NCBI GenBank assembly: GCA_964016885.1
Contig: OZ024741.1
Coordinates: 63,674,001 to 63,738,000, forward strand
From: Eledone cirrhosa
Taxonomy: Eukaryota
Direction of reading: 5' to 3'
Length of the DNA: 64,000 nt
This document shows positions 17,990 to 60,020 of this stretch, in pieces (the stretch's first letter is position 1; the number at the start of each line of letters is the position of its first letter). Under the pieces are notes generated by a model. That model did no database searches and was not told the origin of the DNA. It saw nothing but the letters and a program-made list of their open reading frames with translations. The position numbers and the translations under genes were made by a program.

Positions 17990-18383
17990 TAATAATGATT
18001 GTTTATACTTTTGGCACACGACCAGCAATTATCAAGTATATTACTGGTACTTTACTTTATCGACCCCGTAAGGATGAAAGGCAAAGTTAACCTCGGCTGG
18101 ATATGAACTCAGAACGTAAAGGGACGTAACTATGTTGCAAAGCATGGCGTCCGACCCTCTACCGATACTGCTAATCGACCGCCCTTAATAATTGTTTCTA
18201 CTTTTGGCACAAGGCCAGCAATTACCCAGTGTATTACTGGTACTTTATTTTATCGACCCCGTAAGGATGAAAGGCAAAGTTAACCTCGGCGGGATTTGAA
18301 CTCAGAATGGCAAGGGACGTAACTCTATGCGTCAAAGTATTGCGTCTGACCCACTACCGATACTGCCAATCCACCGCCCTTAA
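17990..18383 (-). mobile_element. Two tandem full-length tRNA-derived Deu/Nin-core SINEs
   Basis: A box (TGGCAGTATCGG), B box (GAGTTCAAATCCC), core GCCTTTCATCCTTACGGGGTCGATAAA, (TTA)n tails. Confidence 0.9.
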
Positions 18384-21524: not shown

Positions 21525-22100
21525 CATGTGTGTGTGCATGTATGTATATATATATATATATACATACTATGTATATATATATATACATACTATGTATATA
21601 TATATATATATATATACATACTACTGTACGTCTGTACACATATATGTATGTACGTATACATACTTATATTTAGGTATCAGCCGTACTAAGAGTGAGAAAT
21701 GAAATTTCGTTTCATTATTTTCCATTTATCGTTTTCGGTTGCCCGGCCGACTAACTCACTCGATATGCAGATTAGGCTGCTCAGCCGTTAATATGCATAA
21801 GAAAAGTACATACTTTCAAACGTTCAATAATCTGACAGAAAGGTATAGGATGCTGACGATAGCTAATAAGCTTGAAACTAGTACATCGTTCCTGTGTCAG
21901 TGTTGAACAAAAGGGCGACGATGGTTGCCGAGCACTGTACGGCGTAAATCGGACTGTTTGTTTACAAGCAAACCGAGCATTATAATAAATCTTCGGTAAA
22001 CCCATACGTACGTATATATATGTGTGCATGTATGTATATATATATATACATACTACTGTACGTCTGTACACATATATGTATGTACGTACACATACTTATA
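21525..22100 (+). mobile_element. Retrozyme-like non-coding element, ~1.3 units of a ~432-bp repeat
   Basis: CTACTGTACGTCTGTACACA recurs at 21621 and 22053; contains an HHR; homologous to 33690-34130 and 58711-60020. Confidence 0.8.
21849..21887 (+). ncRNA. Minimal type-I hammerhead ribozyme, canonical core
   Basis: GATG-CTGACGA-tAGCT(aata)AGCTt-GAAA-ctag-TA^CATC. Confidence 0.88.
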
Positions 22101-22156: not shown

Positions 22157-23159
22157 CAAGATGTATGGTAGGTCGTATGTGAATCGCGATGATCACGTCT
22201 GACCTACCAAATATGCGACGGTGGCTAGTTAAGCTCTATGCGTATAAGCAGAGCAGAAATATTAATGAAAAAGAACAAAGGAACTATTATGACATTATAA
22301 CAAGTTTATTGCCGACAGCCGTTTCGTCCGACCATATGGTGGGACTTTTCAAGGCATATAACATGTGATTGTAAGTTCATTATTTACATCAACGTATCAC
22401 TTAAGACTAGCAGTTTGAAATTGTGGTATACATCAGCAGCTCCGCTTGTATATTTGGGGTCTATATTCTAAGGGGGCTCTTTTATATTAGTTGTCGGAAT
22501 TGTAAAAGGGATGGGTTATGGCGAGTTAAGAGAATTTGAAAAGGGCCTAAGAGTCAGGGATTGAAGGTTAAAAATTAGATAATTTATAATTTACGCATTA
22601 AAAGTAAAAGACTTGGGATCTCGTAGAAGCACCTTAAAAAATCCCTCAATAAGTGCATAAAGCTTACAAGCCCCAATAAACTTAACAAACTAGAAGAGAT
22701 TAAGAGACTAATAAAATAAAATAAAAAAAATAAAGATATAAAGTTTCCCTAAAAAAATATATAAAGTTTCCTAAGAAGTTCCTTCGAGAGAAAAAAAAAA
22801 TTTTTTCGAAAGAAAAAAGCTTTCTTCCCCAGTGATCACGTTAAAAAATTTCAGAAAATTTACGAAGTTTTGATGATCCCTACTAAGTTGAAAGAAACTA
22901 ATCAATTAAAGGTTAATTCAAAAAGCCTTCAATAAACCCCTCAGAAAAGGCCCCTTTAATATTTTTAATAGGAACCTCCTCCGAGAGACTCTTCGAAGAA
23001 TTAAAATTTTAGAGAGCCGTTAAGGATATATATAAACGAATTGAGAAAAATTATAAATTAAAAGTTAAAAATTACGGTATTTGGAATATCCGAGGAATTT
23101 TCAACAGATACAACTTAGGTATAATAGATAAAATAATTTAGGGAACTTGCCCAGGGTAA

Positions 23160-23240
23160 CAGTAACAGAACACCCAATATGGCGGCCGCTCCCTGCCTAT
23201 AACCAATCACCCCCCGCCCTCCCCTAATAAATCCCCGCCT
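23160..23240. promoter_or_regulatory. Promoter-like motif cluster inside the fold-back element
   Basis: CCAAT twice, YY1-like AATATGGCGGC and two CCCCGCC GC boxes within 80 bp, beside AT-rich sequence. Confidence 0.4.
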
Positions 23241-24123
23241 TTTGAGTTAGTTCTTCTTTATTATTAGTGGTTCCTTTTGAGTTAGTTCTTTATTAATAGG
23301 GAGTTTTTGGTATATTACCACGGTTGACTTAATGGGCTTGGAGAGTTGACTCCCTTGATGTCTGACCATTCGATAAGTTAGGGGTTGTGCCCCTTGTGCA
23401 GGGGTCTGTCTAGCTGGTCTACCTGCTGTCTGCTACTACCCGAGACTGGACACGGTCGTAGCCACAGGCCAGCGCGTGCGCGATAGCATGGAATATATAT
23501 TTTCTGCTAGTCACCCCGTGTAATATGATACCCCAAGATTCCATGCATGAGATTCACCGAAGCATGCGCAGTCTTAACCGGGAGATGACAAACGAACTTG
23601 AAAATAACACAAGAGAGACCCTTTAGATAGCGTAGACGCCGGACCATACCCGCAAATATATACAGATCTGTCTTGAATATGCATGGCTGACGCAATATGG
23701 ATAACACGACCAACATCTAAGCTGGAACCGACCCCTACAACAAACAAAGAGGGGACAGCCCTTCGCATTTGACCAGTCGCGTGTGTGCTTGGAGTTCGTA
23801 ATATACCACCCCAGTCAAATCCACACTGGTTTTTTTTACCAATATAGCATGTAAACCAATACATCCTATGCAGCGAGACCTTGGATTTAGAACCGGCAGC
23901 GTGCAATCCCCGGAACTAAAAGATCGAACGGACCACACCCAGTAACCACCAGCTATTTGATCCACAAGTACATTTCCCAGAGAGTCCACGCAGCTGATAG
24001 TGAATCCCAGTTGATTCGTGAACTCTGAACTTTTAAACAAGACCAAATGTGCCTGGAGCTATGCAGATGACTACATACGCATAATGGATATCGCGCCCAC
24101 AAGGTCACCTCTATTGTTCATCC

Positions 24124-24490
24124 TGCTGTATGTGTGTAAAGTATCCGTGCGTGGGATATCCCTGAGTACATTTTCTTGACTATCAATTGTTAATTGATTG
24201 TTTGTTAATTAGGCAGGAGTATACCATTATGTCTTTGTTAATCATATGTGATGCTGTATGTGTGTAAAGTATCCGAGAGCGGGATATCCCTGAGCTAATT
24301 TTGCTTGACTGTTAATTGTTTATTGATGTTTTGTTAATTAGGCAGGAATATATTATTATGTCTTTGTTAATCCTGTATCAATAATTTTATAGTAATTTTT
24401 TAATCCTGTATCAATAGTTTTATGATAATTTTGTAATAATTTTATAATAATTTTATAATAATTTTGTGATAATTTTATAATAATTTTTTG
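24124..24490. repeat. Two ~128-bp direct repeats followed by ~11-bp AT-rich tandem repeats
   Basis: TGCTGTATGTGTGTAAAGTATCCG at 24124 and 24252; AATAATTTTAT-like units. Confidence 0.85.
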
Positions 24491-25311
24491 ATAGTACATT
24501 ATTAGATTACTGAAGCTACCTTATACCTTCTTAAAAATACATTTTTAATTATTGTCTTTTAAAAATACATTTTATAATTATTGTCTTTTTGCTTATGTAT
24601 TTTCTTACTTATCATTTTCTTTAATCTTGCCCTACTTGATAAGCTCTTTGAATTGCTCCCTAATTAAATTACTTAAATTACTTAAATTATTTTATCTATT
24701 ATACCTAAGTTGAATCTGTTGAAGCAGCCCTTTGAAAATTCCTCGGATATCCCAAATACCGTAATTTTTAACTTTTAATTTATAATTTTCCTCAATTCGT
24801 TTATATATATCCTTAACGGCTCTCTAAAATTTTAATTCTTCGAAGGGTCTCTCGGAGGAGGTTCCTATTAAAAATATTAAAGGGGCCTTTTCTGAGGGGT
24901 TTATTGAAGGCTTTTTGAATTAACCTTTAATTGATTAGTTTCTTTCAACTTAGTAGGGATTATCAAAACTTCGTAAATTTTCTGAAATTTTTTAACGTGA
25001 TCACTGGGGAAGAAAGCTTTTTTCTTTCGAAAAAATTTTTTTTTTCTCTCGAAGGAACTTCTTAGGAAACTTTATATATTTTTTTAGGGAAACTTTATAT
25101 CTTTATTTTTTTTATTTTATTTTATTAGTCTCTTAATCTCTTCTAGTTTGTTAAGTTTATTGGGGCTTGTAAGCTTTATGCACTTATTGAGGGATTTTTT
25201 AAGGTGCTTCTACGAGATCCCAAGTCTTTTACTTTTAATGCGTAAATTATAAATTATCTAATTTTTAACCTTCAATCCCTGACTCTTATGAACTTACAAT
25301 CACATGTTATA

Positions 25312-25529: not shown

Positions 25530-25569
25530 TATATATATATATATATACCTTTATATATATATATATATA

Positions 25570-25927
25570 TACCTTTTTAGTCAAAGTAATGCCTTTTTAG
25601 CTGCTTGGAATGGTGGACCTAGGTTTCATTGCTATTTAAGAATTCCTTAATACTTGTTCACTAAACCCGCTGAAACTGTCAATGATATTAACTGAAGGCT
25701 ACTTATTACAATGTAGACAAATATACTATTAGGTAGAGAGTTACATAATAGAACAAGGCTGGAGGCCAGAGAATAATAGCTATAAAACCGTGGAGTTGAC
25801 GAATGAATCGATAGCTTCTAACCAAGAAAATATATATATAGTCGATGTAGATTCCATTAGTTGCAGTTTTCAACTGGGGAGGCGTTCATTAGATGACATA
25901 TTTAGAAATCTGTTGCGCGTATGTACG

Positions 25928-25958
<31 letters not shown>

Positions 25959-26251
25959 AGCGTAAATGATTGAGAGATTAAATTTGTAAAAGTACGCCAA
26001 GAATATTAAAGCTGAATGTGTCTCACCAATCGAACAATGATCGTAACAGATACATTCATTTCATTTGTTGAAAAACATGTAAACATGTAAACATGAAAAA
26101 CATGTAAACATGTAAACGCTTTTATATTTACATGTTTTTCAACAAATGAAATGAATGTATCTGTTACGATCATTGTTCGATTGGTGAGACACATTCAGCT
26201 TTAATATTCTTGGTGTACTTTTACAAATTTAATCTCTCAACCGTTTACGCT

Positions 26252-26310
<59 letters not shown>

Positions 26311-26946
26311 GAGGAGTTATAGTTCACTTGAAGCATTGTGTAATGAGGTATAAACGTTTGTATATGTATAATAAAGCCAAAACAATGCAGGTGTGGACAT
26401 AGAATAAAGAATGCAAATGCAAAAGATATTGTTGACAATTAGTCTTTTACCTTAGATTTATTTAAATAAATCTAAGGTAAAACACTAATTGTCAACAATA
26501 TCTTTTGCATTTGCATTCTTTATTCTATGTCCATACCTGCATTGTTTTGGCTTTATTATACATATACAAACGTTTATATATATATGCGTACATACGCGCA
26601 ACAGATTTCTAAATATGTCATCTAATGAACGCCTCCCCAGTTGAAAACTGCAACTAATGGAATCTACATCGACTATATATATATATTTTCTTGGTTAGAA
26701 GCTATCGATTCATTCGTCAACTCCACGGTTTTATAGCTATTATTCTCTGGCCTCCAGCCTTGTTCTATTATGTAACTCTCTACCTAATAGTATATTTGTC
26801 TACATTGTAATAAGTAGCCTTCAGTTAATATCATTGACAGTTTCAGCGGGTTTAGTGAACAAGTATTAAGGAATTCTTAAATAGCAATGAAACCTAGGTC
26901 CACCATTCCAAGCAGCTAAATAGGCATTACTTTGACTAAAAAGGTA
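25570..26946. repeat. Nested inverted repeats: ~365-bp outer arms enclosing two independent palindromes
   Basis: 25570-25932 vs 26582-26946; inner palindromes 25958-26252 and 26349-26578. Confidence 0.92.
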
Positions 26947-26962
26947 TGGATATGTGTTCGTA

Positions 26963-28915
<1,953 letters not shown>

Positions 28916-33669: not shown

Positions 33670-33697
<28 letters not shown>

Positions 33698-33703
<6 letters not shown>

Positions 33704-34130
33704 TATGTATGTATACGTACATACACATATGTATACAGACGTACAGTAGTATGTATATATATATAGATACATGCACATATATATATATGCACGTATCGGT
33801 TTACCGAACATTTACTATAATGCTCGGTTTGTTTGTTTGTAAACAAACAAACTGCCCGAATTACGCCGTACAGTGTTTAGGCAACCACGTCACCTTTTTG
33901 TTCAACACTGACACAGGAACGATGTACTAGTTTCAAGCTTATTAGCTATCGTCAGCATCGTATACCTTCCTGCCAGATGGTTGAACGTCTGAAAGTATAT
34001 ACTTTCCTTATGCATATTAACGGCTGAGCAGCCTAATTTGCATATCGAGTGGGTTCAGTCGGCTGGGTGCACCGAAAATGATAAATGGAATAGAATGAAA
34101 CGAAATTTCATTTCTCACTCTTAGTACGGC
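33698..34130 (-). mobile_element. Retrozyme-like element, ~1 unit, intact HHR at 33919-33961
   Basis: ACGATG-CTGACGA-tAGCT(aata)AGCTt-GAAA-ctag-TA^CATCGT; homologous to 21525-22100. Confidence 0.85.
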
Positions 34131-34505
34131 ATTAGACCACTGTTCACACATTAGACCATACAGACACCCATTATATATGCCTTTGTTAAAATATAGATTC
34201 TTTGGAATAACATTTTTCGCGGCGTTTTCTAGCATGACTGTAGTGTGACCCTTACGCTGACTTCTTTCTTTATTTTTTCTTCTTTCTTCCTTTCTTTCTT
34301 CCCCTTTTTCATTCTTTGACGGAGAGGTGGTAGTGCATTATAAGCCTTCGCCCCCTCACCAGATGGTCATTAGTAGACTAAGTTGCCATCACTTTGAGGG
34401 CGACTGGTCGAGATGAAAGCGGCTAGTTGGACAGTCGTCCTCTCTGTCTCTGTCTCTGATTTTTTGGACCCATGGTTTTGTTCATTTTCCTTTGTTATAT
34501 TTCGA

Positions 34506-34563
34506 ATAGCTGATGATATCACCGGATTCATATGGAACCCGGTCATTGAAATGATCATAGTAT
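34506..34563 (+). ncRNA. Type-I hammerhead in a pLTR-like element (~34130-34750)
   Basis: CTGATGA-tatcACCGG..CCGGTcatt-GAAA-tgatca-TA; helix I has a proximal mismatch. Confidence 0.7.
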
Positions 34564-42885: not shown

Positions 42886-43310
42886 CACAAATCCCGCTGA
42901 GGTTAACTTTGCCTTTTATCCTTACGGGGTCGATAAAATAAAGTACCAGTACTGCACTGGGTAATTGCTGGCCTTGTGCCAAAAGTAGAAACAATTATTC
43001 AGTATCTACACAGGAGTTGTAAAATTTGGAAATAAATAATAAACTAAATTTGGCTGTGTCAAACGATTGAATGGAATGAAATAATGTATTAACTGATCAG
43101 ATAATGAATCAAGTGAATTTTCAGTATAATAACTGTTTCTACATTTGGCACAAGGCCAGCAATTCACCAGTGTATTACTGGTACTTTATTTTATCGACCC
43201 CGTAAGGATGAAAGGCAAAGTCAACCTCGGCGGGATTTGAACTCAGATCATAAAGGGAGGTAACTCTATGCTTCAAAGAATGGCGCCCGACCCTCTACCG
43301 ATACTGCCAT
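42886..43310. mobile_element. Tail-to-tail SINE pair (42886-42999 plus; 43127-43310 minus)
   Basis: SINE cores on opposite strands, about 130 bp apart. Confidence 0.85.
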
Positions 43311-44297: not shown

Positions 44298-44490
44298 TAT
44301 TAATTATTTCTACTTTTGGCACAAGGCCAGCAATTATCCCAGTGTATTACTGGTACTTTATTTTATCGACCCCGTAAGGATGAAAGGCAAAGTTAACCTC
44401 GGCAGGATTTGAACTCAGACCATAAAGGGACGTAACACTATGCTGCAAAGCATGTCATCCGACCCTCTAGTGATACTGCCAATCCACTGT
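44298..44490 (-). mobile_element. Full-length Deu/Nin-core SINE
   Basis: Same motifs as 18190-18383. Confidence 0.88.
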
Positions 44491-51230: not shown

Positions 51231-51397
51231 AAGAAAATGTTCGCTCTACATGGCTGAATACAATAAATGTAATCTGAGTTTTTCGAATATTAATAATAAC
51301 ATTCGATTCGTTTGCAATTATGCAAACAAGCCTCAATTGTATAGCCATGTCAGTAGAATGAACCCTTCATTCTTGCTCTTGTGTTGGCATGCGAACC

Positions 51398-51447
51398 GAA
51401 CTGCAGACACTAATGTTTCTGGATATCACCCTTCATCAGTACAGCTC
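51398..51447 (-). ncRNA. Type-I hammerhead ribozyme with 8-bp helix I
   Basis: GAGCTGTA-CTGATGA-aGGGT(gat)ATCCa-GAAA-cattagtg-TC^TGCAGTTC; lies in an element (~51230-51700) whose tail recurs at 56020-56075. Confidence 0.87.
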
Positions 51448-51510
51448 ACTGGTCACCTGCCAAACTGTCAGAGCTAGTGAAAATATATGCTATTTTCAAA
51501 AATACACAGT

Positions 51511-51612
51511 GACTAATCGGCCTGATTTGCATATTAGAGGACTGGCTGATCAGTCAGATCTGCATATTGGCAGATTCACTGATCCGCCAGATTTGCATAT
51601 CAGCAGACTGGC
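51511..51612. repeat. Three imperfect ~33-bp tandem repeats, each with GAT(T/C)TGCATAT
   Basis: Direct inspection. Confidence 0.8.
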
Positions 51613-52270
51613 AAAAAATAGCTCACTCACAAGCCACAAAGCAACACTACCAATATATTGAAAAATCAGGAGTGGAAATATTCAAAGGATTTATATCGAT
51701 ATAGAATATACTGTATGCGGTTTCAGTCTACCAAATTTTACTCACTAAAGTTTTTTTGTCCAATGTACTGTGTAGTAAAATCCTTACCCATACAGGCTTG
51801 CCTGCGCCTCTGTAGTGTCGTTAGTATCTGAATCAGTAGGTGAACTAGTTTCTGTAAAAAGAAGAGGGCATTTTTAATCATTTTAGTTTATTGTAGGTTG
51901 TGATTGGTTTTAGCAAACAATTGTCGCTGTTTATGCTTCCGTCAACAATAGGAAATACAGATTGCTCTAAAGTAGCGATAGATTTGACGAACACAATAAC
52001 TTTTATCTGCATATGCAAAGTGATAGATGGATAATCTATATACAACTAAAACTCTGTGATTGTGTGCTTGTCTCTTATTTAATACAGCCAAAACGGCGCA
52101 TAATGGGAAAAGACTTTGAAAGGAACTTGCCTTTGAAATGGGAATACAAATGGAATAAAATAATTTTCGCATAAATCGGAGGACGGGCTCCCGAGAGAGA
52201 GAGAAAGATATAGAGAAAGAGATAGTGGTTGTGAGAGAGTAGATTGAAAGACACCCGCATATACACACAT

Positions 52271-57675: not shown

Positions 57676-57739
57676 ATTTCATTATATATATTTCAGGGAT
57701 ACCATATTACAAATATGGTATGCCTTCCTCAGACAAAAT
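57676..57739 (-). ncRNA. Type-I hammerhead in a solo pLTR related to the Naiad at 35100-38110
   Basis: ATTTTGT-CTGAGGA-aGGcATACCATATT(tgt)AATATGGTATcCCt-GAAA-tatata-TA^ATGAAAT; downstream AATAAATATGGTTTTATAAATATAGTTTCCATTT matches 38061-38094. Confidence 0.82.
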
Positions 57740-58656: not shown

Positions 58657-58710
<54 letters not shown>

Positions 58711-58714
<4 letters not shown>

Positions 58715-60020
58715 GGAAAAAATGAAACGAAATTTCATTTCCCACTTTTAGTACGGCTGTTACTTAAATATAAGTATGTACACGTACATACATATATGTA
58801 TACAGACGTACAGTAATATGTATATATATATACATACATGCACACATATATATATGTACGTATGGATTCACCGAACATTTATTATAATGCTCGGTGTGTT
58901 TGTAAACAAACATCCCTTATTAAGCCGTAGTGTCTAGCAACCATCGTTGCTCATTTGTTCAACACTGACAAAGGAACGCTATACTAGTTTCAAGCTTATT
59001 AGCTATCGTCACCAACGTATACCTTCCTGCCAGATTGTTGAACGTATATACTTACCTTATGCATATTAACGGCTGAGTAGCCCAATTTGCATATCGAGTG
59101 GGTTAATCGGCCGGGTGCAACGAAAACGATAAACGGGAAAAATGAAACGAAATTTCATTTCCCACTCTTAGTATGGCTGTTACTTAAATATAAGTATGTA
59201 CACGTGCATACATATATATATACAGACGTACAGTAGTATGTATATATATATACATACATGCACACATATATATATGTACGTATGGATTCACCGAACATTT
59301 ATTATAATGCTCGGTGTGTTTGTAAACAAACATCCCGTATTAAGCCGTAGTGTCTAACAACCATCGTTGTTCGTTTGTTCAACACTGACAAAGGAACGCT
59401 GTACTAGTTTCAAGCTTATTAGCTATCGTCAGCAACGTATACCTTCCTGCCAGATTGTTGAACGTATATACTTACCTTATGTACGTATACATACATAAAT
59501 ACTTACATTTAAGTATCAGCCGTACTAAGAGTGAGAAATAAAATTTAGTTTCATTCTATTCCATTTATCGTTTTCGGTGTGCCCGGCCGACTGAACTCAC
59601 TCGATATGCAAATTAGGCTGCTCAGCCGTTAATATGCATAAGGAAAATATATACTTTCAGACGTTCAACCATCTGGCAGAAAGGTATACTATGCTGGCGA
59701 TAGCTAATAAGCTTGAAACTAGTACATCGTTCCTGTGTTAGTGTTGAACAAAAAGGTGACGTGGTTGCCTAAACACTGTACGGCGTAATTCGGGCTGTTT
59801 GTTTACAAACGAACAAACCGAGCATTATAATAAATGTTCGGTAAACCGATACGTGCATATATATATATGTGTGCATGTATGTATATATATACATACTACT
59901 GTACGTCTGTATACATATATGTATGTACGTATACATACATACATACTTACATTTAAGTAAGTGCCGTACTAAGAGTGAGAAATGAAATTTCGTTTCATTC
60001 TATTCCATTTATCGTTTCGG
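58711..60020. mobile_element. Tandem and inverted array of the retrozyme-like unit (about 1.8 units minus, then 1.2 units plus)
   Basis: 420-bp period (58711/59131); inversion at ~59480; 444-bp period (59521/59965); HHRs at 58976-59018 (-, C3G), 59396-59438 (-, intact) and 59691-59727 (+, A6G). Confidence 0.9.

Follow-up and report, generated by a model that had tools for sequence, protein, structure and literature searches.

A probable non-LTR retrozyme of Eledone cirrhosa with the insertion anatomy of Penelope-like elements

Introduction

How does a short non-coding repeat that carries a hammerhead ribozyme (HHR) motif return to DNA? The question is raised by positions 58711–60020 of a 64,000-nt stretch of Eledone cirrhosa DNA (the window), which an initial annotation had described as a tandem, circularly permuted unit and a candidate source of circular RNA. 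For retrozymes, a route through Penelope-like element (PLE) machinery and a circular template has been proposed in the literature, and related non-LTR retrozymes form circular RNA (PMC7229834). For this step, the family described here points to reverse transcription starting at unit positions 214 and 273, to (TA)n as the target and to candidate enzymes in the same genome. Our reading, to which we give a probability of roughly 0.6, is that the unit is a high-copy non-LTR retrozyme, inserted in trans by the reverse transcriptase (RT) and endonuclease of a PLE from ribozyme-cut, circularised unit RNA. Searching the octopus and cephalopod retrozyme, hammerhead and Penelope literature, largely the openly accessible part of it, by title and abstract, we found no paper describing the family.

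Results

The locus and its repeat unit

All three loci named in the initial annotation hold a non-coding unit of 420–445 nt, the longest ATG frame in the 58.7-kb locus being 53 aa (Table 1). As claimed, a type I HHR motif occurs once per unit (n = 5 in the window), and the unit contains a TA-rich inner segment and the octamer ATGCAAAT. We number the unit from the first base after the predicted HHR cut. The natural monomer delimited in this way (59401–58982, 420 nt) has a GC content of 36.9%, and its predicted fold has a z-score of -7.2. The retrozyme identity agrees with every feature that can be checked in sequence, namely a type I HHR, a short, low-GC unit with neither ORF nor LTR, and tandem organisation. 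The size of the unit, which the initial annotation placed at or above the upper end of the known range, falls inside the ranges given in two published accounts, 150–450 bp (PMC7229834) and 51–972 bp (10.64898/2026.07.22.740005).

The reading of 58711–60020 as one tandem had to be abandoned, since the locus consists of two head-to-head arms that belong to two subfamilies. These arms differ at 84 of 701 compared sites (12%), and unrelated alpha–beta pairs differ at 11.6%. Arm 1 begins at unit position 341 and ends at a fixed site, site B, at unit position 273; it has a period of 420, and its units are identical at 337 of 349 positions. Arm 2 begins near unit position 190 and ends ~10–17 nt beyond site B, outside (TA)n. 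The joint between the arms lies at 59478–59481. As subfamily labels are discordant in just 3 of 34 comparable head-to-head pairs, the locus (58709–60020) is an atypical composite, stemming either from two different RNAs in one event or from two neighbouring insertions.

Table 1. Coordinates of the unit copies in the window and of their parts (positions are those of the window)
Feature	Position	Strand
(TA)n tract, target site entered by the 3' end of the minus arm	58661..58708	.
Arm 1: alpha subfamily (420 nt), 1.84 units	58709..59481	-
Arm 1, intact type I HHR motif (cut predicted at 59402/59401)	59396..59438	-
Arm 1, second HHR motif, with C3G in the core; predicted inactive	58976..59018	-
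59-nt "tail" between 3' end A (unit 214) and 3' end B (unit 273)	59129..59187	-
"Tail", second copy in arm 1	58709..58767	-
Candidate promoter block of the U6 type just 5' of the HHR: octamer at 59092-59085, TATA-like box 42 nt further downstream	59045..59092	-
Arm 2: beta subfamily (445 nt), ~1.25 units, joined head-to-head to arm 1	59478..60020	+
Arm 2, HHR motif with A6G in the core and mismatches in helix I	59687..59730	+
Octamer ATGCAAAT of arm 2	59606..59613	+
Beta copy with one arm (1.2 units), ending 3' at site A; (TA)n ~10 nt beyond	21581..22098	+
HHR motif of the 21581-22098 copy; core intact, one helix I mismatch	21846..21889	+
Beta copy with one arm (1.0 unit), ending 3' at site A within (TA)n	33694..34131	-
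Intact HHR motif of the 33694-34131 copy	33919..33962	-

The hammerhead motif

The motif comprises a 6-bp helix I, CUGANGA, a U-U pair plus a 4-bp helix II, GAAA, and a palindromic minimal helix III. An Rfam search returned no HHR hits at gathering scores in the window, so the assignment rests on motif anatomy. Two of the five motifs in the window are fully intact and three carry lesions (C3G in the motif at 59019, A6G at 59687 and the helix I mismatch at 21846); C3G abolishes HHR cleavage (PMC11167929). Across the family, the core is intact in 130 of 151 distinct motifs, a set partly selected by the core, and in 6 of 10 motifs of the random sample. The reported change in helix I (ACGATG/CATCGT versus ACGTTG/CAGCGT), in which pairing is kept, was confirmed. 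One helix I pair varies in particular (U-G 72, A-U 46, G-U 24, C-G 3 and U-A 1) and is matched in 146 of 151 motifs against 75 if its two sides were independent, a figure that reflects a few inherited events and not 146.

Variation was also distributed unevenly along the unit. None of the 11 HHR core positions is among the 62 columns diagnostic of the three subfamilies. Recurrent variants are rarer in the HHR than elsewhere (5 in 88 HHR columns versus 76 in 558 other columns, p = 0.037), and singleton variants show no difference (p = 0.15); constraint therefore acts on templates and not on inserted copies. This pattern suggests that the HHR is kept under selection among templates, in which case the predicted cutting would matter.

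The HHR appears to be of a weak type, as helix II starts from a U-U pair in 148 of 151 distinct motifs and helix III is minimal. The same U-U is found in axolotl HHR_Amex2, and for a similar axolotl motif a monomer cleavage of 22% per hour is given (PMC7229834). Two of the palindromic helices III pair at a computed -6.8 kcal/mol, HHR dimers pairing through such a helix III have been described (PMC4209133), and predicted circular folds of the unit retain helices I and II. Cleavage was seen in 1 of 9 dimers tested in another study (10.64898/2026.07.22.740005), which calls for caution with the present predicted motif.

Family size and subfamilies

Exact matches to the HHR core number 24,001 genome-wide against 0 for a reversed control, which places the motif far beyond chance. 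In 100 evenly spaced 10-kb pieces of the 3.0-Gb genome, we found 13 loci covering 6,608 bp, two of them being one inverted duplicate; by extrapolation, the genome would hold ~39,000 loci, that is 13 per Mb and ~0.66% of its length. Units are ~420 nt long in the alpha subfamily, ~445 nt in beta and 473–538 nt in gamma. We recovered 51 monomers running from cut to cut, and alpha and beta monomers span 418–446 nt. A 467-nt sister family (L065:5000-6300, L131:6051-6340), ~70% alike across the whole unit, shows compensatory changes in helices I and II, has G-C in place of U-U at the base of helix II and keeps the octamer. Arrays reach 7–10 units, yet just 15 of 204 arms exceed 2 units. Related sequence was also present in the sequencing run of another organism (X8), in 1,593 contigs, most of them less than 95% alike.

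Copy ends and target sites

We mapped the ends of 204 arms at 131 loci drawn from best-hit, pattern, PLE-neighbour and random samples. Before ends were counted, hits with less than 80% identity and less than 250 nt, or shorter than 45 nt (microsatellite noise), were excluded. Among 196 uncensored 3' ends, 163 fell at two sites, 80 at A and 83 at B, with 33 elsewhere; in the random sample alone, 15 of 18 3' ends were at A or B. The counting intervals (205–225 for A, with the true end at ~214, and 255–280 for B, with the true end at 273) together make up 11% of the unit and were set only once the clustering of 3' ends had been seen. The two sites are 59 nt apart, 214 and 273 nt downstream of the predicted cut. 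(TA)4 follows 131 of the 163 canonical 3' ends, compared with 5.6% at random positions. In contrast, 5' ends are scattered across the unit. The circular permutation claimed for the copies therefore holds at their variable 5' ends and fails at their 3' ends, which are fixed at two sites.

Two or more arms were present at 65 of the 131 loci. Where both outer ends of a join were visible, 55 joins were head-to-head versus 2 tail-to-tail. The 35 head-to-head pairs with both ends canonical comprise 32 of A with B, 2 of B with B and 1 of A with A (p = 2e-7), and a further 20 pairs have a non-canonical end.

PLE insertions have been described as partly tandem and truncated at the 5' end, in many cases with a 30–40 bp tail at one end and an inverted 5' copy (10.1101/2021.04.23.441226). 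Reverse transcription by the purified PAc protein, which cuts both strands of AT-rich DNA, begins at two internal sites that delimit this tail (PMC11167929). The features of a PLE insertion that we looked for are found here: twin fixed 3' ends, variable 5' truncation, partial tandems, inverted copies and a (TA)n target. The tail of the unit, at 59 nt, is longer than the usual 30–40 bp of PLEs. Because the ends match those of PLE insertions and of PAc, the best reading of A and B is as two RT start sites, each serving one side of the break. The initial annotation had offered fixed termini as grounds for refuting the retrozyme reading; the 3' termini did prove fixed, but in the twin arrangement that is a PLE signature, which is no refutation. 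Its suggestion that a PLE enzyme mobilises the unit gains support from the twin fixed 3' ends, one per arm, and from the (TA)n targets. We consider it highly probable, on the pattern of these ends, that a PLE enzyme working in trans inserts the unit.

A circular or a linear template

For read-through and 5'-end counts, one inverted duplicate locus and one mis-split piece were also left out. The predicted cut site was read through in 31 of 37 passes in the sets not selected by HHR, and in 36 of 40 second passes in all sets. Such read-through is compatible with a circle and also with an uncut multimer. Since just 1 of 202 5' ends can be matched to the cut position itself, the main template is something other than a linear cut monomer.

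The alternative that survives best retains the same PLE enzyme and the twin starts, and has them act on a linear multimer of a source array, uncut or partly cut, with the HHR trimming 5' ends or regulating the RNA level. A partly cut linear template would give an excess of 5' ends at unit positions 1–17, and a mild one is seen. The enrichment is 2–4 times (6 versus 1.5 expected, P = 0.004, and 7 versus 3.2, P = 0.04), with 4 versus 1.9 expected for second-pass 5' ends (P = 0.12); the peaks at the hairpin at 69–85 and at the microsatellite edge at 120–136 equal or exceed it. The apparently weak type of the HHR also suits a linear template, as does PAc, which, as tested in vitro, copies uncut RNA and does so without need of HHR activity (PMC11167929). 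Neighbouring units, moreover, often differ by 2–6%, as much as units of unrelated loci do. However, an origin in linear multimers fits poorly with the single 5' end that matches the exact cut, with the shortness of most loci as multimeric sources (more than 2 units in 1 of 18 random arms), with the HHR constraint among templates, and with arrays such as L303, in which all units, partial ends included, share 11 private variants.

Sharing of private variants was more general. Adjacent units have 4.9 such variants per kb in common (3.8 in short arms), the two arms of a locus 2.4 per kb and unrelated loci 0.62 per kb, a sharing that could stem from gene conversion; the units of L215 are near-uniform, with 0–3 differences per 323 sites. 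Given insertion by a PLE, we lean towards circular unit RNA as the template, and regard the linear multimer as a possible but less probable one.

Two long arrays have an 842-nt dimer period. In L301, units of 420 and 422 nt alternate and a helix II lesion is found in 4 of 5 short units; in L302, a helix I lesion is found in every second unit. A dimer circle made through one crippled ribozyme was considered for both arrays and dropped, as lag-842 mismatches cluster in the way that a later DNA duplication would predict: L302 has 4 at one end in the first 178 positions and 0 in the following 899, and L301 has none across 1,900 nt. Since these two arrays look like later DNA duplications, array length alone is no evidence for rolling circles. 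Possible scars of RNA editing were left unused; A>G exceeded T>C 1.3 times per locus (p = 0.05), with 1.7 times in alpha and 0.9 times in beta, and C>A versus G>T was as asymmetric (p = 0.0045).

Coding PLEs of the same genome

PLEs with RT plus GIY-YIG are abundant in this genome, with matches in 10 of 100 random 10-kb pieces. In 4 of 5 coding PLE families examined, there are two (TA)n-anchored ends, ~65, 40, 55–60 and 38 nt apart, the 38-nt spacing being based on two copies; the L126/L130 and L124 families are those with spacings of ~55–65 nt. Four PLE proteins examined carry a Cys linker of the Neptune/Nematis type, a feature described for that clade (10.1101/2021.04.23.441226). Separately, we noted three stop-free PLE ORFs with RT plus GIY-YIG and the Cys linker (L121, L122 and L123; 938, 844 and 1096 aa), and some PLE families may therefore be recently active.

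The insertion anatomy that the unit shares with PLEs could also mean that it is the pLTR, or the truncated 3' end, of an undiscovered coding PLE, so that its copies would be ordinary PLE remnants. Xenopus retrozymes resemble pLTRs (10.64898/2026.07.22.740005), and we examined just 50 PLE loci out of more than 10,000 candidates. However, no PLE in our sample (20 loci with long ORFs, 30 with GIY-YIG) carried the unit as its pLTR, and no RT plus GIY-YIG ORF was attached to it at any of 131 unit loci, a small sample relative to the genome. Attachment to a coding PLE as an ordinary pLTR, the other refuting case put forward in the initial annotation, was accordingly seen at 0 of 131 unit loci and 0 of 50 PLE loci. 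The sole case of a neighbouring PLE (L132) is an insertion of the unit into (TA)n beyond the end of that element. Furthermore, arms run into a preceding unit and not into an ORF: 141 of 204 cross the cut site, 99 are longer than one unit, and there are the arrays of 7–10 units.

A search for a coding partner, using word-7 blastn and local alignment of 3 unit segments against 13 PLE 3' regions, gave weak matches only, the best of 39 alignment tests having z-scores of 3.0–3.8 (the L126/L130 family and L135). One match with a z-score of 5.2 was rejected as a coding partner, as it is a copy of the 467-nt sister family. We regard an origin of the unit as part of a coding PLE as very improbable. Least probable of all is a DNA-level minisatellite or a fold-back/MITE-like repeat with no RNA step and the HHR as a passenger, which can draw on the DNA-level duplication evident in L301 and L302 and on the weakness of the A>G over T>C editing mark (1.3 times, p = 0.05), but is largely refuted for dispersal by the strand-polar anatomy, the A with B pairing, the (TA)n targeting, the HHR constraint and the compensatory change; duplication at the DNA level accounts for the growth of some arrays.

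A candidate promoter block

The octamer is kept in the alpha, beta and gamma subfamilies, in the sister family and in another HHR family of the window, 80–100 nt before the core, and in those families a TATA-like box lies 42–45 nt past it. Transcription from this octamer–TATA block would start just 5' of helix I. In the host genome, the octamer word is found at -76 to -78, with TATA near -30, in the three top U6 loci, the top U6atac locus and the single RNase MRP gene (L341-L344 and L350), being exact in 3 of these five and with one mismatch in 2. It was missing from that position in 7 lower-scoring U6 and 5 lower U6atac hits, which are probably retrocopies. No similarity to U2 promoters was found, the two U2 upstream types being without the octamer.

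The octamer–TATA spacing is 42 nt in the unit versus 46–48 nt in host genes, as counted by eye, and alignments of the whole region of the unit with host promoters were not significant (z 0.5–1.0). In alpha, a T6 run at 260–265, ahead of site B, would terminate Pol III there. Internal promoters are active in the HHR satellites of newt and schistosome (PMC2220036).

Two observations concern the host genes themselves. Pol III type 3 genes of this genome have an octamer-like word where the proximal element usually sits, and U2 genes do not. Low-scoring U6 and U6atac copies (L346, L355 and L356) lie directly 3' of (TA)n tracts, which suggests retrocopies into the same kind of target.

Discussion

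Under our preferred reading of a PLE enzyme acting on a circular unit RNA, adjacent units would be transcribed, possibly from the octamer–TATA block, and the RNA would be cleaved by dimeric HHRs paired through the palindromic helix III and ligated to a circle of 420–500 nt. A PLE enzyme would then nick both (TA)n strands and start reverse transcription internally, at A on one side and at B on the other. Both cDNAs would extend back through the HHR for differing lengths before being joined at their 5' ends. A more detailed version, in which unit RNA driven by the octamer–TATA block gives monomer circles through paired HHRs, and a dimeric PLE of the Neptune type reads them from both sides of one (TA)n break, sometimes two circles at once, is speculative and, taken whole, rather unlikely; the idea of two different circles comes from the window locus, which pairs two subfamilies. 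If it were true, the copy ends would preserve in the genome, to the nucleotide, the traces of a telomerase-like enzyme at work in rolling-circle reverse transcription. With predicted starts, a target and enzymes from the same genome, the step is open to the published in vitro PLE assay, comparing a circle with a linear dimer.

By sequence, the Eledone unit would be a further member of the known non-LTR retrozymes that behaves as a non-autonomous PLE. Like the metazoan non-LTR retrozymes described in PMC7229834, it is non-coding, close to their 150–450 bp, highly self-paired and below 50% GC, with one type I HHR per unit and with PLEs in the same genome. In contrast to the loci as presented in that account, in which we saw no such ends, Eledone loci mostly hold 0.3–2 units, half have an inverted second arm, and their twin 3' ends lie in (TA)n. 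PLEs were proposed there as candidates; circles and cleavage were experimental in that work and are predictions in Eledone. The study of Li, Clavereau and Pollet (2026; 10.64898/2026.07.22.740005) shares the conclusion that retrozymes are non-autonomous PLE derivatives and reports monomers, dimers and multimers side by side, as in Eledone, with sizes of 51–972 bp. The grounds given there are co-occurrence and pLTR similarity in vertebrates, whereas ours are insertion ends, with no homologous pLTR found in our sample. The value of the family lies in these copy ends, as direct genomic evidence for PLE mobilisation.

The closest parallel in enzymology is PAc, the Poseidon element of Anolis, in which two internal RT starts also delimit a tail 3' of the HHR and AT-rich targets are cut, and then extended, on both strands (PMC11167929). 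However, PAc is autonomous, and its starts lie ~85–90 nt past the cut compared with 214 and 273 nt in the Eledone unit (PMC11167929); it belongs to Poseidon, whereas the sampled Eledone PLE proteins have the Cys linker of the Neptune/Nematis type. Newt satellite 2 and the schistosome HHR satellites are HHR repeats with an internal promoter of the small-RNA type (PMC2220036, PMC7229834). Promoter activity has been demonstrated in newt and schistosome (PMC2220036), whereas the Eledone block is a candidate whose octamer–TATA spacing is ~5 nt off that of host U6-type genes.

Other repeats in the window

Several further repeats were noted in the window. A different HHR family at 51380-51700 on the minus strand (core at 51439) has repeated octamers, a TATA-like box 45 nt past the last of them and the word TGGCAGG 5' of the HHR, in which it resembles the unit described above. 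Another type I HHR, at 57732 on the minus strand, has a long helix II and a TATATA helix III and belongs to an abundant family with many copies in random genome pieces. At ~34470-34535 on the plus strand, 350 nt from the 33.7-kb copy, lies a further HHR-like motif; its helix II is long, and it matches motifs in L126. Large inverted arms of 289–564 nt, 97–99% complementary, are found at 1225-2681, 22541-25295 and 25552-26964, two of these structures being flanked by (TA)n; they may be other two-armed insertions of the PLE type. Finally, a dispersed short repeat is present in 9 copies in the window (e.g. 99-281, 17993-18368, 43127-43309 and 44299-44481) and presumably resembles an octopus SINE.
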